In this document: positions 7,262-24,114 of the stretch, in pieces
Layout: each line of letters begins with the position of its first letter
Numbering within the stretch: the stretch's first letter is position 1
Assembly (NCBI GenBank): GCA_003250475.1
Contig: QKGI01000136.1
Span: 19,188-83,187 of the forward strand
Direction of reading: 5' to 3'
DNA from: Bacteroidota bacterium
GTDB lineage: Bacteria > Bacteroidota > Bacteroidia > Bacteroidales > VadinHA17
DNA: 64,000 bases
Notes under the pieces: model-generated
Told to the model about the DNA's origin: nothing
The model's database searches: none
What the model saw: only the letters and a program-made list of their open reading frames with translations
Made by a program: the position numbers and the translations under genes

Positions 7262-7270
7262 ATTCTGATA

Positions 7271-8059: not shown

Positions 8060-8154
8060 TAATCTCGGAAATATTATACTAAAGTTATACAATTTCAGAA
8101 ATCAGAAGTCAATACATGATAATAAACATGCGGAAAGAAGTGTAAATTAGTGGT

Positions 8155-8856
8155 ATGATGGAAGCACTAAATACCGGGCATGGAACGGAGATATTCAGGC
8201 TGACTCCTGCCAGGTGCAATATCTTCATTGTAAGAAGAAACAGCAGGTCAATAATGGTTGATTCCGGAATCAGTTTCGACCGGCACAGGATAGAACATGC
8301 ACTGGAGCGCAAAGGGATAATACCTGAGGCTGTTGTGCTGACCCATACACATTTTGACCATGCAGGCAACGCTGCCTGGCTTGCCCATGAGTACGGAGCT
8401 GAGATAGTGGTTCAGGAGGATGAGAAAGAATCGCTTGCTGAAGGTGATACCCCTATCCCTAAAGGTACCTATCATTTCACCAAAAGCCTGGTAAGCCTGG
8501 GTGAAAAGATAGCTCCGGTATTTAAATATGAACCCTGCAAGGCTGACCATGTCTTCACTGACACATTTGACCTCGACCGGTTTGGAATAAGCGGATATAT
8601 AATCCATACGCCCGGGCATTCGCCCGGGGGTGCAACCATAATAATCGATGACAGCATTGCCATCGCAGGTGATTCTATAATAGGTACCATACCGGGAAGC
8701 CCCTTTCCTCCCTTTGCCGATGATGAAGGTCAGCTGATCCGCAGCTGGAAGAAAATCATTGACACAGGATGCCATACCCTCCTTCCCGGTCACGGCAAGC
8801 CGGTATCGAGAGAGACAATTATTAATGAGTACAGTAAAAGGAGCAGAACACAATAA
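8155..8856 (+). CDS. MBL-fold metallo-hydrolase
   Basis: HxHxDH motif HTHFDHAGN, with later HTPGHSPGG and LPGHG metal ligands. Confidence 0.88.
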   Translation: MMEALNTGHGTEIFRLTPARCNIFIVRRNSRSIMVDSGISFDRHRIEHALERKGIIPEAVVLTHTHFDHAGNAAWLAHEYGAEIVVQEDEKESLAEGDTPIPKGTYHFTKSLVSLGEKIAPVFKYEPCKADHVFTDTFDLDRFGISGYIIHTPGHSPGGATIIIDDSIAIAGDSIIGTIPGSPFPPFADDEGQLIRSWKKIIDTGCHTLLPGHGKPVSRETIINEYSKRSRTQ

Positions 8857-8912
8857 TTATCTGCTGCCAACTACCCTGAAATTCCGTTATTTCATCCTGA
8901 CACTAATGAAGG

Positions 8913-10328
8913 CTATTCTGCCAATATATCGGAATAGGACTTACCGTACTCTTCTCCATACATGCTTTTGTAGTCTTTGACATAATTTGTGTAGATCTGC
9001 TTTGACAGGTATGGCTTTCCGAGGATGGTATAATATCTGCATTTGAGAGAAAGGGCAAGATCATTCAGAGGATCAACTGTGAACAGTGCGTCTGCAATGG
9101 CATTGGTCAGCCCGGGATTTCTTTCCCAGTCCATATGACCGGAGAAATCAGTAAGAAGGGTAATAACATAATCGGCTATACCTGCTTTGACATCATCAAG
9201 CCACAGGTAGTCACATTCAGGAAGGAATGCCCCCTTTTTGACAAGGGTTACAAGACTCTCTATATCCTCCACTCTGATGATCTTTTTCCCTATCGTCTCC
9301 CTGAAGTCAAGATAATCAACATATATATCTGTAAATTCAATCAACCACTTACCCTTCTCATGTGACAACTGGTACCCACCGACTGTTTCCAGCAACTGCC
9401 TTAATTTGGCGAGGTACACTGACCTGTTGTTCCTGGCACTTTCCTCGCTTTTATCGAACCAGAGGAGCTCCTTTAGCGATGCCGAAGAGATTCCCTCATC
9501 CGGCTGCCTGCAGATAAGTAATATAAAAAGCTCCTTCAGAATTGGTGAGAAGCCGGAGGAGATCTCCTCACCATTCCTGTTATATACCTCAAAGCCTCCA
9601 AACAGATGAACCGAGCTGGTTTTGGACGGCAATTTTTCAGTTATTGTGACATTGCTTATTGTTACCTGTTCGGGGTTCTGGATCCCTTTCCTTTTCAGAT
9701 ACCTGTTTCTCAGGTGCATTATCAGGAAGAACCCGATGTCAGCAACCACAAGCAGGATTAGCAGCAGTATCTCGGTATACAGTTTTCTGTCGCCTGACAT
9801 GTCGGAGACTTCAGGAGAGGTGACCCTGACAAACCTGTGGCTTTCCGGGGGACCGGATAAAGAAACTCCCGGCATGAAAGTGACCTGATATTTCCTTCCT
9901 TGTTGAAGCTTCATTTTAAACTGTGTGATAATTGTATCTGCAATGGTAAAAGCAAAGTTTCCCGCAGGAGCACTTATCTCCGCGCTTACAGGCATTATAA
10001 CTTTCAATGCAGTCCTATTCCCCGGTGATTTTCTGAGGACGGTGTCTTCTGTGATAAAGAAAAATGAATATCCTGTAATGGTATCATGGTCGGCCACTAT
10101 GGTCAGGACAACCTTCCGGCCTTCTTTTATGCTCAGAACCAGCTCTGAAAAGTTTACTGCGCTGTCAGGAAGAGTTATCCCGCATGATGCAATTATCTTG
10201 TCTCTGAGAATAAATGCATCATTTTCAGAAAATGGGGCAGGCTCCTCGTAATCTCCTATACAACCGAAAAGGCCAACGGTCATTAATGCATACCAAATAA
10301 ACTTAAACAGCCTCATTATAAACAACAT
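8913..10328 (-). CDS. membrane-anchored transcriptional regulator with cytoplasmic winged-helix + BTAD (SARP-like) module
   Basis: N-terminal signal/lipobox LFGC and an extracytoplasmic region of about 160 aa. One TM helix at about aa 184-206 (EILLLILLVVADIGFFLIMHL) is followed by RNRYLKRKG. Next comes VHLFGGFEVYNRNGEEI...LKELLWFDKSEESARNNRSVYLAKLRQLL (an OmpR/SARP-type wHTH) and a C-terminal helical BTAD-like region. The alternative start MRLFKF lies 12 nt downstream. Confidence 0.6.
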   Translation of the reverse strand: MLFIMRLFKFIWYALMTVGLFGCIGDYEEPAPFSENDAFILRDKIIASCGITLPDSAVNFSELVLSIKEGRKVVLTIVADHDTITGYSFFFITEDTVLRKSPGNRTALKVIMPVSAEISAPAGNFAFTIADTIITQFKMKLQQGRKYQVTFMPGVSLSGPPESHRFVRVTSPEVSDMSGDRKLYTEILLLILLVVADIGFFLIMHLRNRYLKRKGIQNPEQVTISNVTITEKLPSKTSSVHLFGGFEVYNRNGEEISSGFSPILKELFILLICRQPDEGISSASLKELLWFDKSEESARNNRSVYLAKLRQLLETVGGYQLSHEKGKWLIEFTDIYVDYLDFRETIGKKIIRVEDIESLVTLVKKGAFLPECDYLWLDDVKAGIADYVITLLTDFSGHMDWERNPGLTNAIADALFTVDPLNDLALSLKCRYYTILGKPYLSKQIYTNYVKDYKSMYGEEYGKSYSDILAE

Positions 10329-10449
10329 AAACGACGGAAAAAATTTTCCTGTTAAATTTAATAAAAATGCCTGTTAATAAAATATTAATTGATTTATTAA
10401 TCTGTTTGTTTGCCGGTCCCGGGTAATTTTATATCAAAATCGACATCAG

Positions 10450-11832
10450 ATGACTTTGATCGGAGGGTTGATAGCAATTCATTTTGTTCTTCTTACTGCA
10501 TTCCTGCTGTACAGGAGGTACAATCCTTCGTTTACTCTCCTGATCATGGGAATGCTGATGTATTTTATCTCACACTGGCTGGGGCTTGCCGGTCCTTCAC
10601 AGGGGCATTCTGAAACAACCGGGTTCCTCCTGTTTGACTTCTTTAAGTTTCTGATTGATTCATTTATAACCAGGTTTGGCAGTACAGGTCTTCTGATTAT
10701 GCTTATCGGGGGATATGTAGAGTTCATGAAGAGAATCAAGGCAAACGATGCCCTTATATATGTGACGATGCAGCCATTGTCCATACTGAAACAGTATCCC
10801 TATATGGCAGCTGTCATGATCATTCCCATAGGTCAGATTATTTTTATTGCCACTCCTTCGGCAGTGGCACTCGGGCTGCTGCTGATAACAACAGTATACC
10901 CTGTTCTGATAGGACTCGGAGTGAACAGGCTGACAGCAGTGTCTGTAATAGCAGCGTGCACTGTTTTTGATATGGGCCCGACCTCTTCAAATGCTGCAAT
11001 GGCCACGGAACTGTTGCAGTCAGACAGTATTTTTTATTTCACACGTCAGCTGAGAGTAGCTCTGCCTCTGACAGTGGTGATGATGGCACTCTTCATGATA
11101 TCCAATAAGTATTTTGATAAGAAGGATCTCTCTGTCCCGGGGAAAATGCCAAGGCCCATTAATATAGAGGAGCTGATTAAGACAACGCCACTCTATTATG
11201 CAATTTTCCCGGCTCTGCCGCTAATATTTACAGTCCTGTTTGCCCCGTCTATCAACATCTTCAATTTAGGAGTCACCTTGGATATTGCTCCATTGATAAT
11301 ACTGTCAATGTTCATTGCAGTCATTGCTGAGCTGATAAGACGCAAGTCCGTGAAAGACACATTTGCTGCTATTAATCCTTTCTGGTCAGGTGCAGGCAGG
11401 ATATTTGCATCGGTGATAGTCCTGATAGTATGTGCTGAGATTTTTGCTACCGGACTGATAAACCTTGGACTTATAGATTCAATGGCTGCGGCTATTCAGG
11501 CTCTGGGTCTTAACTCCATATTTGTCATAATACTCCTCACTCTCCTTTCATTTTCTGCTGCGGTTATCAGCGGAAGCGGCGTGGCGGTCTTTACTACCAT
11601 CGGCAAGTTCATACCTGACCTTGCCCTTAAATTCGGTATCCCGGCGATTGCCCTCATGATCCCCGTGCAGCTTGCTACAGGGCTTGGAAGGGCAGCCTCA
11701 CCCATAGCAATAGTGATTATTGCAATCTCCGAGATCGCAGGAGTATCCCCGTTCGATGTTGCTAAAAGGAATGCAGGGCCACTATTGATAATTGCATTCC
11801 TCCTTGTTGCCCTCTCTTCTGTTTTATTCTGA
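10450..11832 (+). CDS. DcuC-family (C4-dicarboxylate anaerobic carrier-like) transporter, copy 1
   Basis: 460-aa polytopic protein, colinear with E. coli DcuC as I recall it. Conserved blocks include GSGVAVFTT (DcuC GSGNAPFYA) and GVSPFDVAKRNAGP (DcuC ISPFEVVKRTSVP). Confidence 0.8.
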   Translation: MTLIGGLIAIHFVLLTAFLLYRRYNPSFTLLIMGMLMYFISHWLGLAGPSQGHSETTGFLLFDFFKFLIDSFITRFGSTGLLIMLIGGYVEFMKRIKANDALIYVTMQPLSILKQYPYMAAVMIIPIGQIIFIATPSAVALGLLLITTVYPVLIGLGVNRLTAVSVIAACTVFDMGPTSSNAAMATELLQSDSIFYFTRQLRVALPLTVVMMALFMISNKYFDKKDLSVPGKMPRPINIEELIKTTPLYYAIFPALPLIFTVLFAPSINIFNLGVTLDIAPLIILSMFIAVIAELIRRKSVKDTFAAINPFWSGAGRIFASVIVLIVCAEIFATGLINLGLIDSMAAAIQALGLNSIFVIILLTLLSFSAAVISGSGVAVFTTIGKFIPDLALKFGIPAIALMIPVQLATGLGRAASPIAIVIIAISEIAGVSPFDVAKRNAGPLLIIAFLLVALSSVLF

Positions 11833-11858
11833 GAAATAATGGTTAATCAAAACATATA

Positions 11859-13397
11859 ATGACTAAATACTACCTGTTTACAATAATTTTCCTGCTCTCT
11901 TCAGGGCTTCTGGAAGGACAGCAGTCAGCCCTTATTACATCGAAATATTTCCCTGACCCTCCTGTTGAATTCGGCACACCGACCCTCTCCATAAAGGAAA
12001 ACCGGTTTGCAACATACGAGGAGATAATGACATGGATTGACAGGAATATTTCCCATGAGCGGAATGCAAGTGTCAGGATAATCGGGACGACACCAGGCGG
12101 GAGGGAAATTCCTGTAATTTATCTCTCCAACGGGAGTGCGGGACCCAAGATAAGGGTATGGATGCAGGGTTTGCTGCACGGCAATGAGCCCGCCGGGGGA
12201 GAAGCTTTATTATTTCTCGCCAGGGAGATCCTCACCGGTGAGACTGGTAAAAACTACCTTGACAATATGGACATTGCCATTCTGCCGGTAGCCAATTTTG
12301 ACGGGTATCTGGCCATGGACAGGAGATCGGCAGCCGGTTTTGACCTGAACAGGGACCAGACCAAGTTTGCCGATCCGGTAAGCAAAATCATAAAAAAAGC
12401 CTTCATCGACTGGAACGCAGACATCGCATTTGACTTTCATGAATTTCAACCCACAAGACGTGAATATTCAACGGTTGGAAACAAGGGCGCTTCAATCTCT
12501 TACGATGTCCTTTTTCTTCTTTCCGGATATATGAATATACCGTCAGGACTGCGCAGGGCATCGGGAGAGATATTTCAGAAAGAGGCAGAACAGGTTTTGG
12601 ACGCTCACGGGTACACTCATAATTTTTACTTTACAACCGATGTGTCGGGTGATGAAATTGTCCTTAACAAAGGAGCACAGAGTCCTCATTCGAGTTCAAC
12701 CTCTTATGCCCTGGCAAATGCCGTCTCCATGCTTGTAGAGACAAGAGGTATTGGCCTGGGAAGAACATCTTTCAAGCGGAGAACTTACAGTGTTTACCTG
12801 GTAGCTGACAGCTTTCTTAAGAGTGCTTTGAAGCATAAGGAGGAGCTACTTGAGACAATAGCAGAGGCAAGAGCGGAGACCATCTCCGGAGGAGGTGATG
12901 TTACTGTAATCAATGAGCCGGCAGTGTGTCAATCTTCTGTGAATTTCATTGATATCGAAACAGGAGATCTTATCACCCTTAATCTGAAGACGAAGGATGC
13001 GGAGAACATGTCCCCGGAGCTTGTCAGGCCAAGGCCTTATGCCTATGTCCTCGAACCGGGATGTGCCAGGGAAGCTGAAATACTTGCTTTGCTGGGGCTG
13101 AGGGTGGAAGAGCTCAGGCACAAAAAGAAACTCAGGGCAGAAAGCTATGTTATCACGGATTATCAGGAGTCTTCAACGGAATGGGAAGGAATACGGCAGG
13201 CATCAGTTACCGCTGAAACATATTCCGGATCCAGGGTCTTTCCGAAGGGATCATTCTATATAGACCTCCGTCAGAAGAATGCCAATTATGCGGTATCCCT
13301 TCTGGAACCGGAAGCTGTCAATGGCTTTGTCGCTTACAGGGTCTCTCTGACCTCAATGGGAGATACACTTAAGATTCACAGGATTACCAGAAAATAA
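11859..13397 (+). CDS. secreted M14 family zinc carboxypeptidase
   Basis: Signal peptide. Zinc ligands sit in LLHGNEPAG (HxxE) and a later FDFHEF His, in the typical M14 arrangement. Confidence 0.8.
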   Translation: MTKYYLFTIIFLLSSGLLEGQQSALITSKYFPDPPVEFGTPTLSIKENRFATYEEIMTWIDRNISHERNASVRIIGTTPGGREIPVIYLSNGSAGPKIRVWMQGLLHGNEPAGGEALLFLAREILTGETGKNYLDNMDIAILPVANFDGYLAMDRRSAAGFDLNRDQTKFADPVSKIIKKAFIDWNADIAFDFHEFQPTRREYSTVGNKGASISYDVLFLLSGYMNIPSGLRRASGEIFQKEAEQVLDAHGYTHNFYFTTDVSGDEIVLNKGAQSPHSSSTSYALANAVSMLVETRGIGLGRTSFKRRTYSVYLVADSFLKSALKHKEELLETIAEARAETISGGGDVTVINEPAVCQSSVNFIDIETGDLITLNLKTKDAENMSPELVRPRPYAYVLEPGCAREAEILALLGLRVEELRHKKKLRAESYVITDYQESSTEWEGIRQASVTAETYSGSRVFPKGSFYIDLRQKNANYAVSLLEPEAVNGFVAYRVSLTSMGDTLKIHRITRK

Positions 13398-13427
13398 CCA
13401 TAATAAATTAACCCAAAACAAAAAAAA

Positions 13428-16352
13428 ATGAAGAAAACTATCGTACTGCTTTTTTTACTTTTCTCCGGTCTGATGGCAAGCGCCCAGGTCAGGGGGAAAG
13501 TTACCGATGGCGACAGGAATGAGCCATTTGCAGGTGTTACCGTACAGGTCAGGGGAACACAGCGAGGTACCTTTACAGATGCTTCGGGAATGTTTTCCAT
13601 CAATGCAGACCAGGGAGAGGTTCTCTCTTTTTCCTTTATAGGTTATAAACCTGTTGAGCATCAGATTACGGGAACCGGTACTATAAATATTGTTCTCTAC
13701 CCTGACGAGACACAGCTTGACGAGGTAGTTGTAGTGGGATATGGTGTTCAGAAGAAGAGTGATGTGACAGGCTCGGTAGCCTCTGTCAGTCCTGAAACAC
13801 TGGAAAGCCGTCCTAATGCCAACCTTATTCAGTCGCTTCAGGGTTCGGTTGCCGGTTTAAGTATAAGCATTACCGGCTCGAATGCAGAGGGATCGGCAAC
13901 AACAACACGTATCAGGGGCAGCAGGTCCATCACTGCTTCAAATGCTCCACTGGTAATCCTTGACGGTGTTCCGTATTCCGGGAACTGGTCGGAAATTAAC
14001 CCGAATGACATTGAGTCAATGGAGATACTTAAGGATGCTTCCTCTTCTGCTATCTATGGGGCAAGAGGTGCCAACGGGGTTATTCTCATCCAGACAAAGA
14101 AGGGAAAAGACGGCGAGAAGGTCCTGGTATCCTACGATGCCAGCATCACCTCCTCGACGGCAATCAATATTCCGAAGATGATGGATGGTCCTACTTTCGG
14201 GGCATATAAGCTTGAAGCAGGCCTTGTTCATACCTATACCGAGGCAGAGATGTATGCCCAGAATGAAACAACTGACTGGATAGGCCTGGCACTCAGGACA
14301 GGGTTTAACCAACAGCACAACCTTTCATTAAGAGGTTCAGGCAACAATTCGAGGTATTTCATTTCCGGCAACTATACGTCGAACAAGGGAATTGCCAAAA
14401 ACGACGATTTTAGTCGTATCACACTGAGAATCAACTTTGACCAGACAGTGAACAAATACATCACCATCGGCACAAGCACCCAGTATGGCTTCTATGACAG
14501 GAGTGGCAATGCAGCAGATTTCGACGACGCATTTACGATGAACCCCCTTGGTAAGGCCTATACCGAATCAGGTGAGCTCCGCCTTTCCACCTGGGAGGAT
14601 GCCAGCTATGACAGAAACCCGCTTAGCTCACTGAATGATGTCAACGTAAATCACAAGAATGTCCTGGTTTCCAACAATTACCTGAATGTTAATCTCCCCA
14701 TCGAAGGATTATCGTACAAACTGAACACAGGTTACACATACCAGACCCAGGCCGAGCAGAACTATCAGGGACTCAATACTTATGAGGGTCTTCAGAGCAA
14801 CGGTGTCCTGGAGATATCCAATAATTACCAGGTAGACTGGCTGGTTGAAAATATTGTCTCCTATACAAGACTTTTCGGGAAACATAATATTTTCCTGACG
14901 GGTCTATATTCTGCACAGGGTTACAAACAGGAATCGAATGGCATTGAAGCAACCGGTTTCCCGAGTGACGTAATGACATTCTATCAGCCAGACAAGGCAA
15001 GCGTTATGTATCCGAATGCGTCTCAGGACAAATCAAACCACATCTCCCAGATGTTAAGGGCAAACTATAGTTATGACAGCAGATACCTGTTCACAGCAAC
15101 AGTTAGACGGGATGGATTTTCAGCATTCGGTGCCGACAGGAAATATGGTATTTTCCCTTCCCTGGCTCTCGGATGGAACATAACCAATGAATCCTTCCTC
15201 AAAGATTCTCAGTTCAGCGACGTCGTAAACAACCTTAAGTTCAGGGTGTCATGGGGCAAGAACGGGAACGAGGCTATCTCTCCCTATTCAAGTCTTCCAA
15301 ACCTGCGCAGCCTTGACTATCTGTCAAGTGACCATAGTCCGCTGTTCGGGTTCTATCCCTCAAGACTTGCTTCGGCACTACTGGGATGGGAGACCACCAC
15401 ATCGACCAACTTCGGTTTCGATTTTGGTATCCTGGATGACAGAATTACAGGTTCGTTTGATTTCTATCTCTCAAACACATTCGATCTTTTGCTTTCGAGG
15501 TCAATACCACCGATTAACGGGGCCAGTGAAATACTTGAGAACATAGGGCAGACGAAAGGAAACGGGATTGATTTCCAGATCTCTTCGGTAAATATTGACA
15601 GGAACAAATTCAAATGGTCAACCAACCTCAGTTTCGTCCACAACAAGACAGTGCTTGTGGATGTGGGGTTGTATGACGAAAACGGTGATCCGATAGATGA
15701 CATTGCTTCAGAGTGGTTCATCGGTTATGATGTAAATGTCAACTACGACTACCTTTTCGGTGGAATATGGCAGGAAGGAGAATCAACCGAACCCGATGAG
15801 ATAGCAGGCTTTATAAAATACGTTGATGTCAACACAGACGGTGACATTACGCCTGAAGAAGACAAGCAGATAATCGGGAGCCGGACTCCACTGTTTACTG
15901 CCGGACTAAATAATACCTTTACCTACGGCAATGTTTCCCTGTCGGTCTTTATTAACGGATCTGTCGGCGAAACAAGACCTAACTACCTGCTCACACCTTC
16001 AACGATTTCTTACAGGCAGAATCAACTTGATAAGGTGTTCTGGACTTCTGAAAACCCCATCAATACATATCCGGCAAACATACCTGACGGATCGGTCAAC
16101 CTGAGAAGAATGTATTTCTACGAAAAGACCGACTTCCTCAGGGTACAGGACGTCAGCCTTTCTTACATGTTCGACAGGGGACTTATCGGGAAAGCAGGTT
16201 TATCAAGGCTTGAAGCCTATGTAAGTGTCAGGAACCTGTTAACTCTGACTAACTGGTCAGGTCTTGATCCGGAGTTTACCTCAACCGGGTCTGTACAGAG
16301 AGCAATTCCTCAGACCAGACAATTGACTTTCGGTATCAGAACCAGCTTCTAA
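13428..16352 (+). CDS. SusC/RagA-family TonB-dependent outer-membrane transporter
   Basis: Signal peptide and a CarboxypepD_reg N-domain (VRGKVTDGDRNEPFAGVTVQV). The plug region has LDEVVVVGYGVQKKSDVTGSV and ILKDASSSAIYGARGANGVILIQTKKG. The protein is 974 aa and ends in F. Confidence 0.93.
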   Translation: MKKTIVLLFLLFSGLMASAQVRGKVTDGDRNEPFAGVTVQVRGTQRGTFTDASGMFSINADQGEVLSFSFIGYKPVEHQITGTGTINIVLYPDETQLDEVVVVGYGVQKKSDVTGSVASVSPETLESRPNANLIQSLQGSVAGLSISITGSNAEGSATTTRIRGSRSITASNAPLVILDGVPYSGNWSEINPNDIESMEILKDASSSAIYGARGANGVILIQTKKGKDGEKVLVSYDASITSSTAINIPKMMDGPTFGAYKLEAGLVHTYTEAEMYAQNETTDWIGLALRTGFNQQHNLSLRGSGNNSRYFISGNYTSNKGIAKNDDFSRITLRINFDQTVNKYITIGTSTQYGFYDRSGNAADFDDAFTMNPLGKAYTESGELRLSTWEDASYDRNPLSSLNDVNVNHKNVLVSNNYLNVNLPIEGLSYKLNTGYTYQTQAEQNYQGLNTYEGLQSNGVLEISNNYQVDWLVENIVSYTRLFGKHNIFLTGLYSAQGYKQESNGIEATGFPSDVMTFYQPDKASVMYPNASQDKSNHISQMLRANYSYDSRYLFTATVRRDGFSAFGADRKYGIFPSLALGWNITNESFLKDSQFSDVVNNLKFRVSWGKNGNEAISPYSSLPNLRSLDYLSSDHSPLFGFYPSRLASALLGWETTTSTNFGFDFGILDDRITGSFDFYLSNTFDLLLSRSIPPINGASEILENIGQTKGNGIDFQISSVNIDRNKFKWSTNLSFVHNKTVLVDVGLYDENGDPIDDIASEWFIGYDVNVNYDYLFGGIWQEGESTEPDEIAGFIKYVDVNTDGDITPEEDKQIIGSRTPLFTAGLNNTFTYGNVSLSVFINGSVGETRPNYLLTPSTISYRQNQLDKVFWTSENPINTYPANIPDGSVNLRRMYFYEKTDFLRVQDVSLSYMFDRGLIGKAGLSRLEAYVSVRNLLTLTNWSGLDPEFTSTGSVQRAIPQTRQLTFGIRTSF

Positions 16353-16374
16353 TAATCTCTAAACAGAAATAAAG

Positions 16375-18153
16375 ATGAAAAAAATACTATACCTTATACT
16401 GATTTCTGTCCTGGCAATCTCTTCATGCAGTGAGGATTTCCTGACAGAGAAGCCTGTAGATGATATCTTTGCAGACAACCTCCTTGTTAGTTACAGCGGC
16501 TTCCAGAATATGCAGAATGCTATGTTCGCCCTGGTAAGAGATGAATATGACCGTGGTGACAGGTATTACGGAGGCACCTCTTTCGGCAGCATACCCTTTG
16601 CCAAGCATGTGCTGTTCAGTGCCGGTGCTGACAACTCCTGGGGAAACAACAGGCATACGAATTTCAGGCACCTGAGCTACCCAAAAAATATTACGGACAT
16701 GGAAGATGTTATACCATTCCAGGCACTGTTTGAGTGGCTGTATAAAGTGATCAACACCTCAAATATGATTATTTCCAGGGCTGAGAATCCTGATATTGAC
16801 TGGCAGGGCAGCTCAGATGCTGAAGACCTGGCAAACAAGAATACCACGCTTGCAAATGCGAGACTGGTAAGAGCCTGGGCTTACAGGCACCTTACGTATG
16901 CCTTTGGCCCTGTTCCCCTTTCTACTGAAGAGATAACAGGAAGCAACTACAGGACTGACTGGGAAAGAACACCTGTCGCCGACATCCGTGAGGTGATGGA
17001 GCAGGATTTACTCTTTGCCATTGATATGCTACCCATGAGAACAGCAAATAATACAGTGCCATCTGCAGCCGTGGCACGTCATTATCTGGGTGAACTGTAC
17101 CTGGCTATGGGCAGACCCGGGGATGCGAAGTCTGTTCTGCAGCCGCTCGTTGAGGGCACTGATTACACACTGATGACCGAACGGTTCGGGAAAAATGCCG
17201 CTAATCCGGGTCATGCATTCATTGATGTCTTCCGTTCACCTCTTTTCTCAGACGGCAACATGGAGGTACTATGGGCATTCCCGAACACTGAACCGGAAAA
17301 TGCAGCCACAGGTTACTCCCCGAATACCTTTATGAGGAACATGTGGAGGAATTATTACTCAAGTCTTTCAGATATCAGCAAATTAAACCACCCGGATTAT
17401 CCCGGACAGACAATAAAGCTTTTCTGGTCGCTCAACGGCGGTAAGGGAGCCGGCAGGCTGGCCATCTCCCTGGGGGCATTCAATCTGTATAAGTATAATG
17501 AACAGGATACCAGTGATGTGAGATACGATGAGAATTCACTTGTCTGGCATCTCTATTTCCTCAATACAGATAACCAGGAATACGAGGTGCTGAAGAACGG
17601 GATCAGTCTTATTAACCTGACGCCCAACGCTGCGATGAGTAACGACGCAGATCCCACCATCAAACAATACAACTGGCCGTCAACAAAAAAATGGGATTAT
17701 GTAAATCCTATTTTTGAGCAGTCTGACGCTGACAATGCTTATAATGACATAGTATACCTGCGACTGGCAGAGACCTATCTTCTATACGCAGAAGCCCTCT
17801 ACAAACTGGGTGAAGGCGGCGAGTTCTGGCTGAACAAGATCAGGGAGCGTGCCCAGGTTACACCTATTGACGGTTCTGAGATGAGCATAGATATGATACT
17901 GGATGAAAGAAGCCGTGAGCTCATCACCGAGGAGGAGAGGAGACACACCCTGATAAGGCTTAGCCAGGAAAATGGCGGAGATGAAAGACTTGCCAGTAAC
18001 ATATTTAAGACCAGGGTAAGAACATACAACGAGGTATCTGGGAGAGAAGTCAGAGGAATGTGGGATGACGAAACACCGGTGTTATTGCCGATACCCCAGG
18101 CTTTCATTAACTCAAATTCAGGCAGAGTAATTCAGCAGAATCCCGGCTACTAG
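16375..18153 (+). CDS. SusD/RagB-family outer-membrane lipoprotein
   Basis: Lipobox AISSCSEDF, LVRAWAYRHL, YLRLAETYLLYAEALY and ILDERSRELITEEERRHTLIR motifs. It lies directly downstream of SusC. Confidence 0.9.
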   Translation: MKKILYLILISVLAISSCSEDFLTEKPVDDIFADNLLVSYSGFQNMQNAMFALVRDEYDRGDRYYGGTSFGSIPFAKHVLFSAGADNSWGNNRHTNFRHLSYPKNITDMEDVIPFQALFEWLYKVINTSNMIISRAENPDIDWQGSSDAEDLANKNTTLANARLVRAWAYRHLTYAFGPVPLSTEEITGSNYRTDWERTPVADIREVMEQDLLFAIDMLPMRTANNTVPSAAVARHYLGELYLAMGRPGDAKSVLQPLVEGTDYTLMTERFGKNAANPGHAFIDVFRSPLFSDGNMEVLWAFPNTEPENAATGYSPNTFMRNMWRNYYSSLSDISKLNHPDYPGQTIKLFWSLNGGKGAGRLAISLGAFNLYKYNEQDTSDVRYDENSLVWHLYFLNTDNQEYEVLKNGISLINLTPNAAMSNDADPTIKQYNWPSTKKWDYVNPIFEQSDADNAYNDIVYLRLAETYLLYAEALYKLGEGGEFWLNKIRERAQVTPIDGSEMSIDMILDERSRELITEEERRHTLIRLSQENGGDERLASNIFKTRVRTYNEVSGREVRGMWDDETPVLLPIPQAFINSNSGRVIQQNPGY

Positions 18154-18158
18154 TTGAT

Positions 18159-19529
18159 ATGGCAGTTCCCGGATTCATAATATGTATTGCAGTAATTTCA
18201 ATAACAGCAGTACTGCTCTACAGGAGGTTTAATCCTCAGGCTGTCCTGATTTTTGCGGGACTACTGATGATAAGTTTTGCGGCTGCTATGGGGTTGCACC
18301 CCATAGCGGTCACGAAACCCTCAGGCAGTTTTGTGTTTGATATCGTCCAGGAGATTGAGGACGGCTTCATAAGCAACATCACAAGAATTGGATTAATGAT
18401 AATGACAATAGGCGGATATGTGGCCTTTATGAATAAGATAAAAGCTACCGATTCGCTTGTTTACATTGCCATCAAGCCACTGGCATTCTTCAGAAAATAT
18501 CCCTACCTGGCCTCGGTCATTGCAATTCCGATCGGTCAGATCCTGTTTATGACTATACCGTCAGCTGCAGGCCTTGGCCTCCTCCTGGTGGCATCGTTCT
18601 ATCCGGTGCTTGTCAGCCTCGGGTGCAGCAGGATGACTGCCCTTTCGGTAATTGCAGCGGCAACAATTTTCGACCAGGGTCCCGGATCAGCAAATACCGC
18701 TATGGCCGCTTCACTGATCGGCAAAGCAAATGTGGAATACTTTGTCAGCGATCAGTTGCCTCTTGTCATACCTACTACCGTGGTTGTGATGATACTTTAC
18801 TACTTCAGTAACAGATATTTCGACAAGAGAGACCTGAAGGCAGGGAAGGAGACCTGTATAAGAGAACCGGAACAGAAGGGGAAACCGGACATGCCTCTGA
18901 TATTTGCCATATTGCCGATGCTGCCTCTGCTGCTTCTTGTAATCTTCTCGGAATATGTTGGCCTGGTCGACATCCACCTGAGCACCACGGTGGCGATGCT
19001 GTTTTCCCTGATAGTGTCGGTGGTCTTTGTCATTATCGTCAAAAGGGATTTCCGAAGCGTAATAGACATGCTTGAAAGCTTCTGGAAAGGCATGGGCAGT
19101 GTTTTCAGCTCTGTAATAACCCTGATAGTCTCGGCTGAGATTTTTTCACAGGGACTGATCAGCCTGGGATTCATAGATACTCTTGTCACCGGCTCAACAC
19201 ACCTTGGATTTTCAGGAGTCGTCATTTCCATCTTTATCACGATACTGATATTCCTTGCAGCCATGTTGATGGGTAGCGGTAATGCAGCATTCTTCTCCTT
19301 CGGGCCTCTTATACCGGACATAGCACCGAGGCTTGCGATGAATGCGCCTGACATGATCCTGCCTATGCAGTTGTCTGCAAGCATGGGTAGAGCCACATCA
19401 CCCATTGCAGGAATTATTGTTGCCATAGCGGGTGTCGCGGGTGTATCACCCGTTGAGCTGGCAAAAAGAAACCTGCCGCCTCTGGCGGGCGGACTGTTTG
19501 TTCTCTTGTTGTTTCATTTTATCTTCTGA
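18159..19529 (+). CDS. DcuC-family transporter, copy 2 (divergent paralog of 10450-11832)
   Basis: 456 aa, colinear with copy 1. Examples: LLYRRFNPQ vs LLYRRYNPS; GSGNAAFFSF; GVSPVELAKRNLPP. Confidence 0.8.
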   Translation: MAVPGFIICIAVISITAVLLYRRFNPQAVLIFAGLLMISFAAAMGLHPIAVTKPSGSFVFDIVQEIEDGFISNITRIGLMIMTIGGYVAFMNKIKATDSLVYIAIKPLAFFRKYPYLASVIAIPIGQILFMTIPSAAGLGLLLVASFYPVLVSLGCSRMTALSVIAAATIFDQGPGSANTAMAASLIGKANVEYFVSDQLPLVIPTTVVVMILYYFSNRYFDKRDLKAGKETCIREPEQKGKPDMPLIFAILPMLPLLLLVIFSEYVGLVDIHLSTTVAMLFSLIVSVVFVIIVKRDFRSVIDMLESFWKGMGSVFSSVITLIVSAEIFSQGLISLGFIDTLVTGSTHLGFSGVVISIFITILIFLAAMLMGSGNAAFFSFGPLIPDIAPRLAMNAPDMILPMQLSASMGRATSPIAGIIVAIAGVAGVSPVELAKRNLPPLAGGLFVLLLFHFIF

Positions 19530-19536
19530 TAATACG

Positions 19537-20649
19537 ATGATATCAATAATAAAAGGCGGAGAGGTTTATGCACCTGAAAGACTGGGGAAAAAGGACATTC
19601 TCACAGTTAACGGACAAATTGTGGCAATAGAGGATTCCATCACAGTGAAGGAGTTGTCACCGGTAGTAATTGACGCAGCAGGGAGAAAGATATGCCCTGG
19701 CTTTATTGATCAGCATGTCCACGTCACCGGCGGGGGAGGACAGTTCGGTTTTTCATCTTTTATACCCGAGCTGTTTGCGGGTGACTTGCTTGCTGTAGGA
19801 ACCACAACGGTACTGGGCATGCTGGGTACCGACGGATTTGTAAAAGAGCTAAGCACCCTGTACAGCAAGGTCAAATCACTGGATGAGACGGGCGTCACCG
19901 CATTTATGCTCACCAGCTATTACGGATTCCCCCCGAAGACAATTTGCGGATCAGTAGCTGACGATCTGATATTCATAGATAAGGTTATAGGATGCAAGCT
20001 GGCTATAAGTGACGATCGCAGCTCTTTCCCAACAGAGCGTGAGATACTCAGACTAATTAACCAGGTAAGGCTGGGAGGCTTTACATCAGGTAAGGGAGGA
20101 ATACTTCATATGCATCTCGGAGCCCTTGAAAGCAGGGTTGATACCCTCCTGAATATTGCAGAAAACTATCCGTCACTTATATCATATATCTCACCGACAC
20201 ACTGTTCAAGGACCCGGAAACTGTTTGAAGATTGCCTGAAGTTAGCCAGAGCCGGGGTAATGATCGATATCTCTACCGGGGGTACCACCTTCACCAATCC
20301 GCATAAGGCAGTTCAGATTGCTATTGAGGAAGGTGTGACCCCGGATCGGATAACATTTTCAAGCGACGGTAGAGGAGGTGTGCGAAGGGAAGATCCCATA
20401 ACAGGTGCCGTAACCTATAATCCTGCTCCTCTTGACCTTAACCTTAAAGAGGTCGTCAGCCTCGTTGTAAATAATATTCTCCCGCTCGAGGAAGCATTGA
20501 AGCTGATAACAGTAAACCCGGCAAAGAACATGAAGATAAAAGGCAAGGGTAAACTGATGCCTGGTTACGATGCTGATATGGTTATTCTTAACGACAATCT
20601 TGAAATAGAGCAGGTCATTTCAATGGGTGTCAGCCGGCTGAAAAAGTGA
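19537..20649 (+). CDS. iadA: isoaspartyl (beta-aspartyl) dipeptidase
   Basis: The ORF is trimmed to MISIIKGGEVYAP (ATG 19537). It is colinear with E. coli IadA as I recall it: CPGFIDQHVHVTGGGG, LGTDG, VIGCKLAISD, HMHLG, SPTH, FSSDG, GYDADMVIL. There is no signal peptide, so it is predicted to be cytoplasmic. Confidence 0.88.
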   Translation: MISIIKGGEVYAPERLGKKDILTVNGQIVAIEDSITVKELSPVVIDAAGRKICPGFIDQHVHVTGGGGQFGFSSFIPELFAGDLLAVGTTTVLGMLGTDGFVKELSTLYSKVKSLDETGVTAFMLTSYYGFPPKTICGSVADDLIFIDKVIGCKLAISDDRSSFPTEREILRLINQVRLGGFTSGKGGILHMHLGALESRVDTLLNIAENYPSLISYISPTHCSRTRKLFEDCLKLARAGVMIDISTGGTTFTNPHKAVQIAIEEGVTPDRITFSSDGRGGVRREDPITGAVTYNPAPLDLNLKEVVSLVVNNILPLEEALKLITVNPAKNMKIKGKGKLMPGYDADMVILNDNLEIEQVISMGVSRLKK

Positions 20650-20683
20650 AATAGATCAATTGATAAATCATAACCCGTTTAAA

Positions 20684-21634
20684 ATGAAGATACTTAGAAA
20701 AGAGAGCCTGGTTGTCCCAATCCTGTTGCTTACCTTATTGATCCCGGCCGGGTGCAAATCCAACACAGATAATAATAGGAGCGTGCCGCAATCAGGGATT
20801 ATGACTTTCAACACGGGTCCGGGTTTTGATGACAGGGAGATCAAGGTTCATTACTATATACCTGCCGGGAAGGTTTCAGAAATGAAATGCCAGGTTGTAA
20901 TGCACGGTGCCGGCAGAAATGCAGATGAATATCTTGCCGGTTGGATATCTAAAGCCGATGAATATGGCCTGATCATTATCGCACCCGGGTTCTCCAGGGA
21001 ACTATTCAGACCTGAGGAGTACTATGGTGGAATGGCTGTTACTCCCGAAGGGGAAATCAATGAACCGGATTCAACCACCTTTTCTCTGATTGACAGGATT
21101 TTTGAACTGGTAAAAAAGACACATAAACTGAAGCAAACATCTTATAATATCTTTGGTCACTCAGCCGGTGGGCAGTTTACGCACAGGTTCATGCTGTTCT
21201 ATGACAGTCCTTATGTTGACAGGGCCGTTGCCGCCAATGCCGGATGGTATACTTTCCCGGACGACACGACTAATTACCCTTACGGACTCAGGGGTCTTTA
21301 CCCTGATATCGACACTATCAGAAAAAAATATTATGCCAGACAGCTTACAATACTGCTAGGCACAGCCGACACCATAAGGAGTGATGACCTCAGGCAGACT
21401 CCTGAGGCTGATCTTCAGGGATTAACCAGGCTGGCAAGAGGAGAGGCATTTTTTAATTATAATAAGTTAACGGCCGGCAAGCTTGGGCTTGCCTTTGTAT
21501 GGAACAAGGCTTATGTACCGGGAGCGGGGCATGATCATACCAGGATGTCTCCGGCAGCCGCAGATCTGCTGTATGGCAGCCGGATAACGGAAAAAGATGA
21601 TATCTTAGAGCAGCCGGATGAAGATAAACAATAG
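20684..21634 (+). CDS. alpha/beta hydrolase lipoprotein (PHB-depolymerase/LpqC-like esterase fold)
   Basis: Start MKILRKESL with lipobox IPAGC. It has VVMHGAGRNADEY, a flanking W...ADEYGLIIIAPGF block and the nucleophile elbow GHSAGGQF, plus a late GAGHDH. Confidence 0.65.
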   Translation: MKILRKESLVVPILLLTLLIPAGCKSNTDNNRSVPQSGIMTFNTGPGFDDREIKVHYYIPAGKVSEMKCQVVMHGAGRNADEYLAGWISKADEYGLIIIAPGFSRELFRPEEYYGGMAVTPEGEINEPDSTTFSLIDRIFELVKKTHKLKQTSYNIFGHSAGGQFTHRFMLFYDSPYVDRAVAANAGWYTFPDDTTNYPYGLRGLYPDIDTIRKKYYARQLTILLGTADTIRSDDLRQTPEADLQGLTRLARGEAFFNYNKLTAGKLGLAFVWNKAYVPGAGHDHTRMSPAAADLLYGSRITEKDDILEQPDEDKQ

Positions 21635-22958
21635 CAAGTGGCTCAAAACAGCAGGGTTACTGGCAGCAGGAATTGTTGTCGGTAACCTGGCTATGGATGA
21701 CCCCGGGCAGAAGCTGGGGGTTGGCATTCTGATATTTATCGGAGGTTTATGGGTGACAGAGATATTCCCTCTTGCTGTTTCGGGTCTTCTTGTGCCGGTT
21801 ATAGCTGTACTGTTCAATATTTTTAATGCCAGGGAGGCACTGTCACATTTTGCCAATCCGGTAATTTTCATTTTCATCGGAGGCTTTGCACTTGCCGCCG
21901 TCCTGAATGAACACGGTATTGACAGGTGGCTGGCAAACAACCTGATTCACCTGGCCAGGGGCAAAAGATGGGTTGCCGTTGCATCTATCCTTGGCGCCAC
22001 ATCCCTTCTTTCAATGTGGATGAGCAATACGGCCACAGCAGCCATGTTTCTTCCTATCGGTATGTCACTCATTGATAAAAAGTATCCAAAGGCACGCACG
22101 TTTGTTATCCTGGGAACAGCGTTTGCTGCGAGCATCGGAGGAATAAGCACCCTTATCGGCAGTCCCCCAAACCTGATTGCTGCCGGCGCACTGGATATTG
22201 ATTTCGTTACCTGGTTTAAATTCGGATTTCCGGTGACACTGATCCTCTTCCCTCTTCTCCTTTTTGTACTTAAACTGATTGTCAAACCCGAGAAGGATTT
22301 CCATCTTAACGAAATAAATATCACGCGGGAGAACTGGAGCAGTAAACAGACGATGGCAACTGCCTTTTTCTTTTTTATTGTGATACTGTGGATCGGATCC
22401 AAACCGATAGGTGATCTCATGCATATTGATAATTTTGATGCTGTTGTCGGGGTACTGGCGGCTGCGCTGGCACCGGCATTCGGACTCACTTCATGGACCA
22501 GGATGCAGGACTCCATCAACTGGGGTATCCTGCTGCTGTTCGGCGGAGGTTTGTGCCTGAGTGCGATTCTCTCCGAAACAGGCACTTCGGCAATGATTGC
22601 CAACAGCATTTTGAAAAACATCAATGAAGGTCATGGACTGATGCTGTTGTTACTGGCTGTGATATTTATTATCGGCCTGACAGAAATATCGAGCAACACC
22701 GGTGCTGCTGCGATATCCATACCAATAATGATGGAGGTAGCCATGCAATTCAATCCGGAATATGTTTTGCCGATGGTCATGGCTATCGGGATAGGTGCCA
22801 ACTGTGCATTCATGCTTCCTGTATCAACGCCTCCCAATGCCCTGGCCTATGCTACCGGTGAGGTGACGGTAAAAACAATGATAAAAGCAGGCGTGCTGCT
22901 TGATCTTATAGCAATTCCCATAATATGGCTATGGGTCAGTAAAGGACTTGTATTCTGA
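21618..22958 (+). CDS. DASS (SLC13-like) family anion/dicarboxylate:sodium symporter
   Basis: 446-aa polytopic protein with two hairpin SNT motifs (MSNTATAAMFLPIG and SSNTGAAAISIPIM). Each is followed by a PPN motif (GSPPNLIAAG, STPPNALAYA). The gene overlaps the upstream gene by 17 nt. Confidence 0.85.
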   Translation: MKINNSKWLKTAGLLAAGIVVGNLAMDDPGQKLGVGILIFIGGLWVTEIFPLAVSGLLVPVIAVLFNIFNAREALSHFANPVIFIFIGGFALAAVLNEHGIDRWLANNLIHLARGKRWVAVASILGATSLLSMWMSNTATAAMFLPIGMSLIDKKYPKARTFVILGTAFAASIGGISTLIGSPPNLIAAGALDIDFVTWFKFGFPVTLILFPLLLFVLKLIVKPEKDFHLNEINITRENWSSKQTMATAFFFFIVILWIGSKPIGDLMHIDNFDAVVGVLAAALAPAFGLTSWTRMQDSINWGILLLFGGGLCLSAILSETGTSAMIANSILKNINEGHGLMLLLLAVIFIIGLTEISSNTGAAAISIPIMMEVAMQFNPEYVLPMVMAIGIGANCAFMLPVSTPPNALAYATGEVTVKTMIKAGVLLDLIAIPIIWLWVSKGLVF

Positions 22959-23174
22959 ATTACCTGTATCATGCACATTATCTACGGGCATGATTGCCAC
23001 GCCCTCAGATACCACATATGTGCATATTTAATTATATATGTTAACTGATACCCGGGCCTGAAATAAATTGTGGAATCTGAAAGCCAGGGACCGGGTTTTA
23101 AAAATCCAGAAATCTGATTGACATAACATATGAAAAAAAATGGTGTAATTTAATATCTCAAAACTCGTACGAAA

Positions 23175-23930
23175 ATGAAGAAAACATTCAAAATCATCGT
23201 TTTAACAGCATTATTTGGTATTCTTTATATCAACGGTAATGCTCAGGGAGAAAAGGATTCGCTCAGAGTACTGTTTGTGGGTAACAGTTACACCTACTTT
23301 GAAAATATGCCACAGATGGTTTCGGTGATTTCAGAGAAGACAGGCACCAAATTAATTACTGAAAAAATTACCCTAGGGGGCGCCAAGCTCAGTGAGCACT
23401 GGCGGGGTGAACGGGGACTGAAGACGCTGGAGAAGATAAAATCCGGGGATTTTGATATAGTAATCCTGCAGGAATGGAGTCTCGGAACGGTAAGTGAGAG
23501 GGACAGCGCCATGAAGTACCTGGCATTGTTTAGCGATTTTGTCAGGGAACAGGGGGCCATTCCCTACTACTACCTCACCTGGGCCAGGGAGAAGGTTCCT
23601 CAGCAACAGAGTACGATCAGTAACGCATATCGTGAAGCAGCCGGACAAAATGACGCAGTAGTGGTCCCTGTGGGGGAAGCCTGGGCTATTGCACGGAAGC
23701 TGCGTCCCGACTTCAAACTGTTCAATCCTGACGGGACCCATCCTTCTGCCTTTGGGGCTTATCTAACCGCATGTGTTTTTGTAGATGTGATAACAGGTGA
23801 GCTGCCTGCCGTTCTGCCGACCTTCCTCGGTACCCGTGACCGGCATGGTGAATCTGTGATACTGATGATGATCGATCAGTTTGACGCGGACTTTTGCCGG
23901 GCAGTGGCCCTGGAGGCTGTCAGCCGGTAG
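23175..23930 (+). CDS. secreted SGNH-like hydrolase-fold protein (DUF4886-like)
   Basis: Signal peptide, VLFVGNSYTY near the N-terminus and DGTHPSAFGAYL (DxxH block) near the C-terminus. Confidence 0.6.
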   Translation: MKKTFKIIVLTALFGILYINGNAQGEKDSLRVLFVGNSYTYFENMPQMVSVISEKTGTKLITEKITLGGAKLSEHWRGERGLKTLEKIKSGDFDIVILQEWSLGTVSERDSAMKYLALFSDFVREQGAIPYYYLTWAREKVPQQQSTISNAYREAAGQNDAVVVPVGEAWAIARKLRPDFKLFNPDGTHPSAFGAYLTACVFVDVITGELPAVLPTFLGTRDRHGESVILMMIDQFDADFCRAVALEAVSR

Positions 23931-24071
23931 TGAGCGGGAACCATTGAGACAGCAACCCGATGGCAGGTCCGGCATTGGGATTGAGAACCACAGGACGGAA
24001 AGCCTGCAATGTAAAGCAACAGGAGCAATTGATTTCCGGCTTATTCTGATTTCCCGGTTCTGCCGGACTAA

Positions 24072-24108: not shown

Positions 24109-24114
24109 CTGAAG

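Follow-up and report, generated by a model that had tools for sequence, protein, structure and literature searches.

What does a bacterium import through a SusC/SusD pair whose neighbors are peptidases and anion carriers rather than carbohydrate-active enzymes (CAZymes)? This question is raised by a locus in a 64,000-nucleotide stretch of DNA, hereafter the window, from an uncultured Bacteroidales bacterium of the VadinHA17 lineage (assembly GCA_003250475.1, contig QKGI01000136.1, positions 19,188 to 83,187 of the forward strand). The original prediction, made from the letters of the window, had remarked on this composition and suggested a locus for the use of isoaspartyl or acidic peptides. 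Here, we find that its lipoprotein hydrolase is, on sequence grounds, a homolog of the polyaspartate hydrolase PahZ1, that the gene set around it recurs across Bacteroidota, and that the secreted enzymes of the locus are fused to one another in many lineages. We consider it reasonably probable that the locus is dedicated to the uptake and catabolism of beta-aspartyl-linked acidic oligo- or polyamides (polyaspartate-like compounds), with SusC/SusD (SusCD) as the import platform. The identities of the genes, their conserved catalytic residues, their conservation, the fusions and the genomic context are the data on which this proposal is built.

Composition and layout of the locus

Searches with hidden Markov models bear out the gene order, families and coordinates given earlier, the products being, in order, DcuC, M14, SusC, SusD, DcuC, IadA-like, alpha/beta-hydrolase lipoprotein and DASS proteins. 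The listing of open reading frames (ORFs) likewise agrees with the reported spacing of 5-34 nucleotides (nt) or overlaps between genes. The count of nine co-directional genes has to be amended, as 10450-22958 holds eight; a ninth, encoding an SGNH/DUF4886 protein (23175-23930), lies 216 nt downstream of 22958. The span had also been started at 8913, thereby taking in a divergent gene that was left undescribed and appears to encode a regulator. Besides this regulator and the ninth gene, the PahZ1 identity of the hydrolase and the fusions had gone unnoticed. The reported lack of CAZymes stands: Pfam and NCBIfam place none of the products among the glycoside hydrolases, lyases or recognized carbohydrate esterases. 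The features of the locus are as follows:

8913..10328, minus strand: putative membrane-anchored SARP-type regulator (AlphaFold2 and Foldseek)
10372..10401, no strand assigned: three ATTAAT-containing heptamers, candidate operator (pattern scan and orthologue alignment)
10450..11832, plus strand: DcuC carrier, paralog 1 (PF03606, NF037994, TIGR00771)
11859..13397, plus strand: secreted M14 zinc carboxypeptidase (PF00246)
13428..16352, plus strand: SusC/RagA-type TonB-dependent transporter (TIGR04056)
16375..18153, plus strand: SusD-like surface lipoprotein (PF07980, PF14322)
18159..19529, plus strand: DcuC carrier, paralog 2 (NF037994, TIGR00771)
19537..20649, plus strand: IadA-like beta-aspartyl dipeptidase (PDB IadA matches, TIGR01975)
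20684..21634, plus strand: PahZ1-type serine hydrolase lipoprotein (6ve6, 9o7u)
21618..22958, plus strand: DASS anion symporter (TIGR00785, CitMHS)
23175..23930, plus strand: secreted SGNH-like hydrolase, DUF4886 (PF16227, 4s1p)

Judging by alignment with homologs, the IadA-like gene most likely starts at the ATG at 19537 rather than the GTG at 19432, and the hydrolase gene, whose ORF itself opens with a TTG at 20660, most likely at the ATG at 20684. A scan of 8500-24700 for sigma-70 promoters and terminators returned counts at chance level and no evidence on operon boundaries. The Bacteroidetes TAnnTTTG motif shows no enrichment, and none lies inside the intergenic region between the regulator and the first DcuC gene.

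Relationship of the lipoprotein hydrolase to PahZ1

The hydrolase had been labeled PHB (polyhydroxybutyrate)-depolymerase/LpqC-like. This lineage is correct, and within it the protein is closer to PahZ1: it matches the PahZ1 of Sphingomonas sp. KT-1 (PDB 6ve6) with E=1e-53 and 42% identity over 250 residues, and a second PahZ1 structure (9o7u), which we read as that of the Pedobacter sp. KP-2 enzyme of PMC13017698, with 3e-49 and 36% identity, LpqC (3d0k; 2e-39) coming behind both. It has a GHSAGG lipase box at residues 166-171, and its S168, D237, H291 and R257 align with S157, D225, H280 and R246 of the KT-1 enzyme, namely the catalytic triad and the substrate-positioning arginine validated there through mutagenesis (PMC13017698). 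These four residues are invariant in 18 homologs of 39-86% identity and are also retained in the fused and porin-type PahZ1 forms described below.

Hydrolysis of thermally synthesized polyaspartate, poly(Asp), is a required characteristic of PahZ1, and all six homologs tested, with a mutual identity of 35-93%, degrade the thermally made polymer (PMC13017698). The characterized enzymes cut beta-beta Asp amide bonds (PMC13017698, PMC4456602). In Pedobacter sp. KP-2, the PahZ literature has so far found no homolog of PahZ2, the second enzyme of that system (PMC13017698). We sought a close relative of the KP-2 PahZ1 among the loci fetched for this study and found none, all of them scoring about 200 bits. 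In a scan of one genome per species, the best match of the window hydrolase is at 66% identity, in a Bacteroidales metagenome-assembled genome (MAG).

Conservation of the gene neighborhood

Homologs of the hydrolase at 86, 66, 51, 48, 44 and 43% identity were viewed on their own contigs (n = 6). M14, SusC, SusD, DcuC, IadA and PahZ1 occur together on all six, the 66% contig, which ends upstream of SusC, showing the set from SusC onwards only. More broadly, the M14-SusC-SusD-DcuC-IadA-PahZ1 set is kept, in varying orders, at 86, 66, 61, 51, 46, 44, 43 and about 40% identity. The species scan found PahZ1 relatives in at least 551 species of many phyla. For the 80 best PahZ1 loci, we called ORFs and searched them with the window proteins: 14 are SusCD-type, with varied gene order, and eight are porin-type, with beta-barrels in the place of SusCD. 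About 20 of 32 Bacteroidota loci have an M14 gene together with IadA/DcuC beside PahZ1, and searches begun with M14 or with the regulator instead lead to this type of locus as well. The recurrence in Bacteroidota loci and metagenome contigs over 86-40% identity takes the arrangement far beyond chance. Conservation of gene order, named beforehand as the observation on which the idea of a dedicated locus would stand or fall, is thus seen in the recurrence of the gene set in Bacteroidota. The habitats of these loci are gut and rumen for Bacteroidales, and they are also found in freshwater and soil lineages.

Not every PahZ1 homolog lies in such surroundings. Rumen Bacteroidales (L018:4964-9881, L014, L016 and L049) have homologs of 43-47% identity with no partners within 10 kb, that of L018 lying beside histidine-utilization genes and a LysO exporter; from such orphans it follows that not all members of the family belong to the pathway. 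Two SusCD-type loci abut genes of mobile elements, L005:11278-18427 those for Fic, DUF3987, Toprim and Mob_Pre proteins and L094:12028-20157 those of a conjugative transposon (RteC, TraG, DUF4133/4134), suggesting that the locus may travel on integrative elements. In the window itself, the flanks (5960-8856 and 24594-26492) encode a multihaem-cytochrome-like protein with faint matches, PhzF, a metallo-beta-lactamase-fold protein and 1-deoxy-D-xylulose-5-phosphate synthase, names that we took from the annotation of relatives with 86-89% identical locus proteins. These genes look unrelated to the locus, yet they are syntenic in the relatives.

The secreted hydrolases form a module

The M14 protein (PF00246 at 2e-17) has a signal peptide and no lipobox, and in 28 homologs its zinc ligands H107/E110 (HxxE) and H194, the N164-R165 motif for the substrate carboxylate and the catalytic E294 are invariant. 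Its AlphaFold2 model (predicted local distance difference test score, pLDDT, 92) consists of an M14 catalytic domain and a C-terminal beta-sandwich. In Foldseek searches, carboxypeptidase O comes out on top (2e-12), with bacterial CCP-like structures next, all M14 structures scoring alike between 2e-12 and 2e-10. A naive gap-free alignment with carboxypeptidase A places an invariant Ser at the equivalent of position 255, on which we do not rely. We propose that the M14 protein serves as the exo-acting partner of PahZ1, in the role of PahZ2; there is a precedent in CphZ, an M14-superfamily enzyme that cleaves a beta-Asp bond (PMC9974463). The SGNH/DUF4886 protein (PF16227 at 1e-9; PDB 4s1p at 3e-10) has GNS and DGTHPS motifs and a signal peptide.

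The most direct evidence linking these proteins to PahZ1 comes from gene fusions. Bacteroides timonensis AP1 (L033) and a second Bacteroides (L031) each encode one secreted protein of 1009 residues that runs from a PahZ1 domain through DUF4886 to M14. The same triple order recurs in a Tannerellaceae MAG (L030), in an ORF interrupted once the M14 domain has begun. PahZ1-M14 fusions are found in Mediterranea, Prevotellaceae and several Bacteroidales. Among database proteins of 743-848 residues, at least 11 clusters have PahZ1 followed by M14, and others (P0184, P0194 and P0211) have DUF4886 followed by M14. In two further loci (L078 and L085) the DUF4886 gene adjoins PahZ1. The possibility that the fusions are artefacts of stop-to-stop ORF calling was ruled out, since the independent database proteins show the same domain orders. 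The fusions imply that the three secreted hydrolases are one functional module and that the DUF4886 gene, outside the end coordinate first given for the locus, belongs to it, probably as its ninth member. In the B. timonensis fusion, the signal peptide is of the ordinary kind, with no lipobox, which suggests periplasmic action after import.

A comparable pairing exists outside Bacteroidota. In Erythrobacter, Porphyrobacter and Emcibacter (L068:9821-12148, L035 and L089), the next gene after pahZ1 is a homolog of pahZ2 (7ljh, 1.6e-129), an arrangement unmentioned in the PahZ literature that we examined. Judging from these neighborhoods, the predicted exo-metallopeptidase partner of PahZ1 is PahZ2 in Alphaproteobacteria and M14 in Bacteroidota and others.

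Two further architectures involve the PahZ1 domain. In Candidatus Egerieisoma (L019:10816-15324), the ordinary PahZ1 gene of a SusCD-type locus is directly followed by a 1503-residue ORF, in which a large N-terminal part precedes a PahZ1 domain at the C-terminus. In Draconibacterium (L007:10001-11596 and L017:9215-10810), PahZ1 is a 531-residue tandem of a degenerate and an intact domain, followed by the gene for aspartate ammonia-lyase (aspA).

Import, inner-membrane carriers and the IadA-like dipeptidase

The SusC protein (TIGR04056, 793 bits) has Plug and CarboxypepD_reg domains and no STN signaling domain. Its best PDB match is a glycan SusC (8aa4, 2e-120), RagA being matched at 3e-73, and its orthologs in related loci score 980-2160 bits. 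The SusD protein (PF07980 at 1e-28 and PF14322 at 5e-10) is encoded after a gap of 22 nt and has a lipobox followed by CSEDF; it matches solved SusD structures weakly, its orthologs in related loci scoring 610-1340 bits.

Both DcuC paralogs, which are 43% identical to each other, pass the family cutoffs. Paralog 1 (PF03606 at 1e-51) scores 293 bits for NF037994 (cutoff 100) and 255 bits for TIGR00771 (cutoff 187), paralog 2 correspondingly 369 and 308 bits; on these scores we rejected the notion that they are basic amino-acid antiporters of the ArcD/YfcC type. Paralog 1 is present in many, not all, related loci. Paralog 2 always lies directly upstream of IadA, and the two stay together in SusCD-type and porin-type loci alike, as well as in one Comamonadaceae locus. 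We propose that paralog 2 imports aspartate, beta-Asp dipeptides or both. The DASS protein (TIGR00785, 285 bits against a cutoff of 199; CitMHS at 2e-55) occurs only in the closest relatives, i.e. loci of at least 60% identity (L001-L004 and L011-L013), and not in more distant ones; it is presumably an accessory carrier of the locus. In L094, an SDF-family Glu/Asp:cation symporter gene lies between IadA and PahZ1, in the place of DASS.

The IadA-like protein matches IadA structures in the PDB at 1e-74 to 7e-62. In an alignment including E. coli IadA, the metal ligands H68, H70, K162, H201, H230 and D285 and the substrate residues T106, R169 and R233 of the latter, among them the arginines that bind carboxylate, are invariant. 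As stated earlier, it has no signal peptide, and it is predicted to be cytoplasmic.

SusCD is missing from the loci of Butyricimonas, a Bacteroides sp., Flavobacteriales, a Comamonadaceae MAG and a myxobacterial MAG; there, M14 lies between the genes for two related beta-barrels (gene order DcuC-IadA-porin-M14-porin-PahZ1). One of these barrels matches Porin_O_P, a family of phosphate- and pyrophosphate-selective anion porins. The Butyricimonas porins (L048:5840-7186 and 8756-9979) are 49% and 41% identical to those of the Comamonadaceae MAG (L041:16664-18088 and 13882-15117), which, together with the shared gene order, suggests transfer of the porin-type locus between phyla. Near the pahZ1 of a Sphingomonadaceae MAG, there is likewise a gene with a strong match to Porin_O_P. 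In the Draconibacterium loci, aspA lies directly downstream, its product scoring 699 bits for TIGR00839 against a cutoff of 681. Every channel or carrier recruited to these loci comes from an anion, dicarboxylate or acidic-amino-acid family, and the recruited cytoplasmic enzymes are predicted to act on aspartyl compounds.

A putative SARP-type regulator and its candidate operator

The divergent gene at 8913-10328 encodes a protein of 471 residues with no sequence match in Pfam, NCBIfam or the PDB. Its AlphaFold2 model (pLDDT 77) has an N-terminal helix, a beta-sandwich at about 35-176, a transmembrane helix at 181-213 and, at about 238-471, a predicted cytoplasmic SARP-type winged helix with a BTAD domain. 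In Foldseek searches, the C-terminal half retrieves EmbR (2fez, 2e-6) and AfsR (8hvr, 7e-6) with a probability of 1.0 and target-normalized template-modeling scores of 0.44-0.58, and the N-terminal domain retrieves jelly rolls of the galectin/ConA type. Homologs bear the name 'SARP family transcriptional activator' in annotation of the Joint Genome Institute (JGI). At the level of fold, we take the protein to be a membrane-anchored SARP-type regulator. Its homologs at 89, 56 and 47% identity are likewise divergently placed beside DcuC-M14-SusC, and others lie beside the porin-type loci L051 and L077 and the Draconibacterium locus L007.

SARP activators recognize direct repeats that lie on the same side of the DNA helix. 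The 121-nt intergenic region between the regulator and DcuC has three heptamers, TGTTAAT, TATTAAT and TATTAAT, starting at 10372, 10383 and 10395, with a spacing of 11-12 nt. A scan of the 64-kb window for TTAAT-N5-7-TTAAT-N5-7-TTAAT gives a single occurrence, where 0.01 would be expected. When five orthologous intergenic regions are aligned, all three repeats prove invariant, with divergent flanks. Among the 97 fetched loci, the pattern is confined to regulator-DcuC intergenic regions, plus one site in L049. We regard the ATTAAT repeats as a candidate SARP operator. The exceptional L049 match (17586-17612) lies 7 kb from the orphan PahZ1 homolog of that locus. SARP-OmpR regulators are among the regulator families of predicted polysaccharide utilization loci (PULs) (PMC7641319).

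A proposed pathway and its alternatives

From these data, we infer the order of the steps, their compartments, the molecules assigned to the carriers and the ligand of the regulator in the following scheme. The SusD lipoprotein and the TonB-dependent barrel of SusC would capture and import an anionic chain, whose beta-beta Asp amide bonds would be cut endolytically by the PahZ1-type serine hydrolase. The fragments would be trimmed by M14, acting as the exo-peptidase that PahZ2 is elsewhere, and probably also by the SGNH/DUF4886 hydrolase. The DcuC carriers, with DASS here and SDF elsewhere, would move aspartate and beta-Asp dipeptides over the inner membrane, possibly in exchange for succinate or fumarate. 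In the cytoplasm, the IadA-like amidohydrolase would split beta-Asp-X dipeptides, and the aspartate would enter central metabolism, in some genomes by way of the aspA encoded within the locus. The beta-sandwich of the regulator may sense a periplasmic product, upon which the operon would be activated via the three ATTAAT direct repeats. In outline, this is the pathway put forward in the original prediction (SusCD import, periplasmic trimming, uptake by anion carriers and cleavage by IadA), and it fits every computational test that we ran. The list of substrates given with that pathway can be narrowed: the PahZ1 residues, aspA, the Glu/Asp symporter and the anion porins support a poly-aspartate-like compound, with cyanophycin and peptidoglycan peptides less supported.

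Several observations weigh against a polyaspartate-like substrate. We know of no naturally occurring beta-linked polyaspartate. Of the basic residues that flank the cationic substrate trough in characterized enzymes (H230/H231 in KT-1, R239/R255 in KP-2), the hydrolase lacks the His pair, having S241/D242 there; an invariant R240 nearby resembles the KP-2 type. The mature protein, with an isoelectric point (pI) of about 5.7-6.2, does not share the cationic character of those PahZ1 enzymes that bind polyanions best; PahZ1Ebac, with a pI of 6.26, still degrades poly(Asp), and two of the six active homologs have a pI of about 6.3-6.8 (PMC13017698). SusD, with a pI of 4.8, is not cationic either. 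The IadA-like protein scores 320.1 bits for TIGR01975, narrowly under the equivalog cutoff of 331.25, and has Gln, as in all SusCD-type loci, where E. coli IadA has Glu77, the porin-type proteins having Lys. As this Glu is listed as substrate-binding in the E. coli enzyme (PMC10206079), its replacement may mean a changed recognition of the N-terminal group. The profile and fold searches assign to M14 neither a subfamily nor an acidic S1' specificity. Finally, 54 of the 80 PahZ1-containing species loci have no partner gene within 10 kb, and the related locus L093 is without PahZ1.

The most serious alternative is general scavenging of protease-resistant isoaspartyl peptides from aged, deamidated or heat-damaged protein. 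These would be imported in the manner of RagAB, and the PahZ1-like enzyme would cut their isoAsp bond, leaving the trimming to M14 and the last step to IadA. It owes this standing to the promiscuity of IadA enzymes for the residue following beta-Asp (PMC10206079) and to the non-cationic PahZ1-like and SusD proteins, which suit a substrate other than a polyanion; the kinship of SusC with RagA and the abundance of such peptides in the gut and rumen, where the locus is common in Bacteroidales, point the same way. We nevertheless judge it unlikely, in that the accessory carriers and channels (DcuC, DASS, SDF and the OprO/P-like porins) are all of acidic or dicarboxylate families, no POT, Opp or ABC peptide carrier is seen in the annotated neighborhoods, and the characterized PahZ1 enzymes act on beta-beta Asp-Asp bonds (PMC13017698, PMC4456602).

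The remaining alternatives accord badly with the evidence from the carriers, the porins and aspA, and their hallmark enzymes are unseen in the annotated neighborhoods. We hold it to be improbable that the locus acts on a different omega-linked acidic polymer or ester, such as poly-gamma-glutamate, poly(beta-L-malate) or an esterified glycan, with the alpha/beta hydrolase and the SGNH protein working as esterases or gamma-amidases. The PHB-depolymerase/LpqC esterase lineage of PahZ1, the SGNH fold typical of esterases, the ability of DcuC and DASS to carry malate in principle and a PahZ1-CapA-like fusion in Brevifollis (PMC13017698) would be in keeping with it; IadA and aspA point instead to aspartate, the domain fused to PahZ1 is an M14 peptidase, no version of the locus has a CAZyme and no gamma-glutamyl enzymes were seen. 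Use of cyanophycin, with the polymer or beta-Asp-Arg/Lys imported and split, and M14 and IadA as isoaspartyl dipeptidases, seems about as improbable. Cyanophycin is the one abundant natural polymer known to have beta-aspartyl bonds, its breakdown is finished by IadA and the M14-superfamily CphZ (PMC10206079, PMC9974463), and the isoaspartyl dipeptidase with which Bacteroidota would finish cyanophycin is said to be undiscovered (PMC10206079). However, the carriers are of anion and dicarboxylate type, the recruited gene is aspA and not an arginine-catabolic one, and the M14 protein is not close to CphZ, which is absent from its profile and Foldseek match lists. The annotated neighborhoods, in which no search was aimed at these, show no S51 cyanophycinase, basic-amino-acid carrier, peptidoglycan amidase or peptidoglycan glycosidase. 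The last two bear on what we consider the least probable of these alternatives, the recycling of peptides with D-iso-Asx bridges out of the peptidoglycan of lactic acid bacteria and enterococci. M14 does include murein peptide amidases, the peptidoglycan of such bacteria has beta-linked D-Asp/D-Asn and a gut or rumen habitat would fit; but the annotated neighborhoods show no muropeptide permease either, and the locus is also found in freshwater and soil lineages.

Novelty and implications

All parts of the locus are of known kinds (PahZ1, M14, IadA, DcuC, DASS, SusCD and SARP), and a peptide-importing SusCD is known in RagAB. It is their combination that appears to be new. The original prediction knew of no PUL described with such a composition, and we found nothing in the literature that connects PahZ1, polyaspartate or isoaspartyl dipeptidase with SusC/SusD, TonB-dependent uptake or a "peptide utilisation locus". 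A full-text search, covering few subscription journals, turned up no description of a conserved operon in which a poly(Asp) hydrolase forms the core alongside SusCD or anion porins, of PahZ1-M14-SGNH fusions or of the genomic context of PahZ1.

The PahZ enzymes have been studied solely as degraders of an industrial polymer, and the PahZ literature that we examined is silent on their natural role and genomic context. The locus would place PahZ1 in a complete and conserved pathway of import, digestion and regulation, widespread in gut and rumen Bacteroidales, and thereby reframes why bacteria carry enzymes for a synthetic polymer, which may come as a moderate surprise to PUL specialists. It would also extend the SusCD paradigm to a non-glycan anionic polyamide, and its fused or adjacent M14 is a proposed functional replacement for the PahZ2 that is unfound in Pedobacter sp. 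KP-2. The enzymes, the binding protein and the sensor could furnish a toolbox for polyaspartate recycling and beta-aspartyl detection. Since the pathway is present in cultured species (B. timonensis and Butyricimonas muris), the question of its natural substrate is directly testable.

More speculatively, and as a possibility rather than a probability, a natural beta-linked polyaspartate or Asp-rich isopeptide polymer may be common in guts, rumen, freshwater and soil and sustain a dedicated, horizontally spreading system, made up of PahZ1, M14 or PahZ2 as exopeptidase, an SGNH hydrolase, the IadA-like enzyme, DcuC and either SusCD or anion porins, with a SARP sensor in control. Were this so, the 'synthetic polymer' activity of PahZ1 would be a side effect of its natural role, the locus would be the first polyamide utilization locus of Bacteroidota, and SusD and the sensor domain of the regulator would be usable as probes for the polymer.

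Comparison with known systems

With Sus-like PULs, the locus shares the adjacency of SusC and SusD, the secreted and lipoprotein hydrolases, the dedicated regulator and the co-directional arrangement. It differs from them in having no linked CAZymes, either among its nine products or, barring unrelated neighboring genes, in the related loci; in their stead are peptidases or amidases and dicarboxylate carriers, and elsewhere the same enzyme set works with OprO/P-like porins. RagAB of Porphyromonas gingivalis (6sli) is likewise a SusCD-family pair that takes peptides, not glycans. The likeness of its SusC component is at the family level, and RagAB does not share an operon with hydrolases, carriers and a dipeptidase of its own.

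The putative regulator shares with AfsR and EmbR the winged-helix and BTAD fold, along with direct heptamer repeats at a spacing of about 11 nt upstream of the target operon, and adds to these an N-terminal periplasmic jelly roll and a transmembrane helix. Its membrane-spanning sensor/regulator topology is similar by description to that of SusR (PMC7641319).

The proposed final cytoplasmic step, by a binuclear-metal amidohydrolase of the IadA type, is shared with isoaspartyl catabolism by IadA, IaaA and CphZ. The neighbors of E. coli iadA are YjiG/YjiH, whereas the IadA of the locus is paired with DcuC, not with YjiG/YjiH or an arginine ABC system. The locus is further set apart from the cyanophycin pathway by the replacement of Glu77 with Gln or Lys and by neighborhoods that show no cyanophycinase, no aimed search having been made.

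The closest parallel is the PahZ system of strains KT-1 and KP-2 (6ve6, 9o7u and 7ljh). Instead of the M20/M28 enzyme PahZ2, the locus has a divergent M14, often fused to PahZ1; its hydrolase is a lipoprotein with a pI of about 6, as opposed to a cationic periplasmic enzyme; and its enzymes sit within a complete operon for import, catabolism and regulation of a sort undescribed in the PahZ literature examined. Common to both are the lipase box, the Ser/Asp/His triad and the specificity arginine of the hydrolase, and with them a shared logic, in which an endo-acting serine hydrolase followed by an exo-acting metallopeptidase would yield aspartate.

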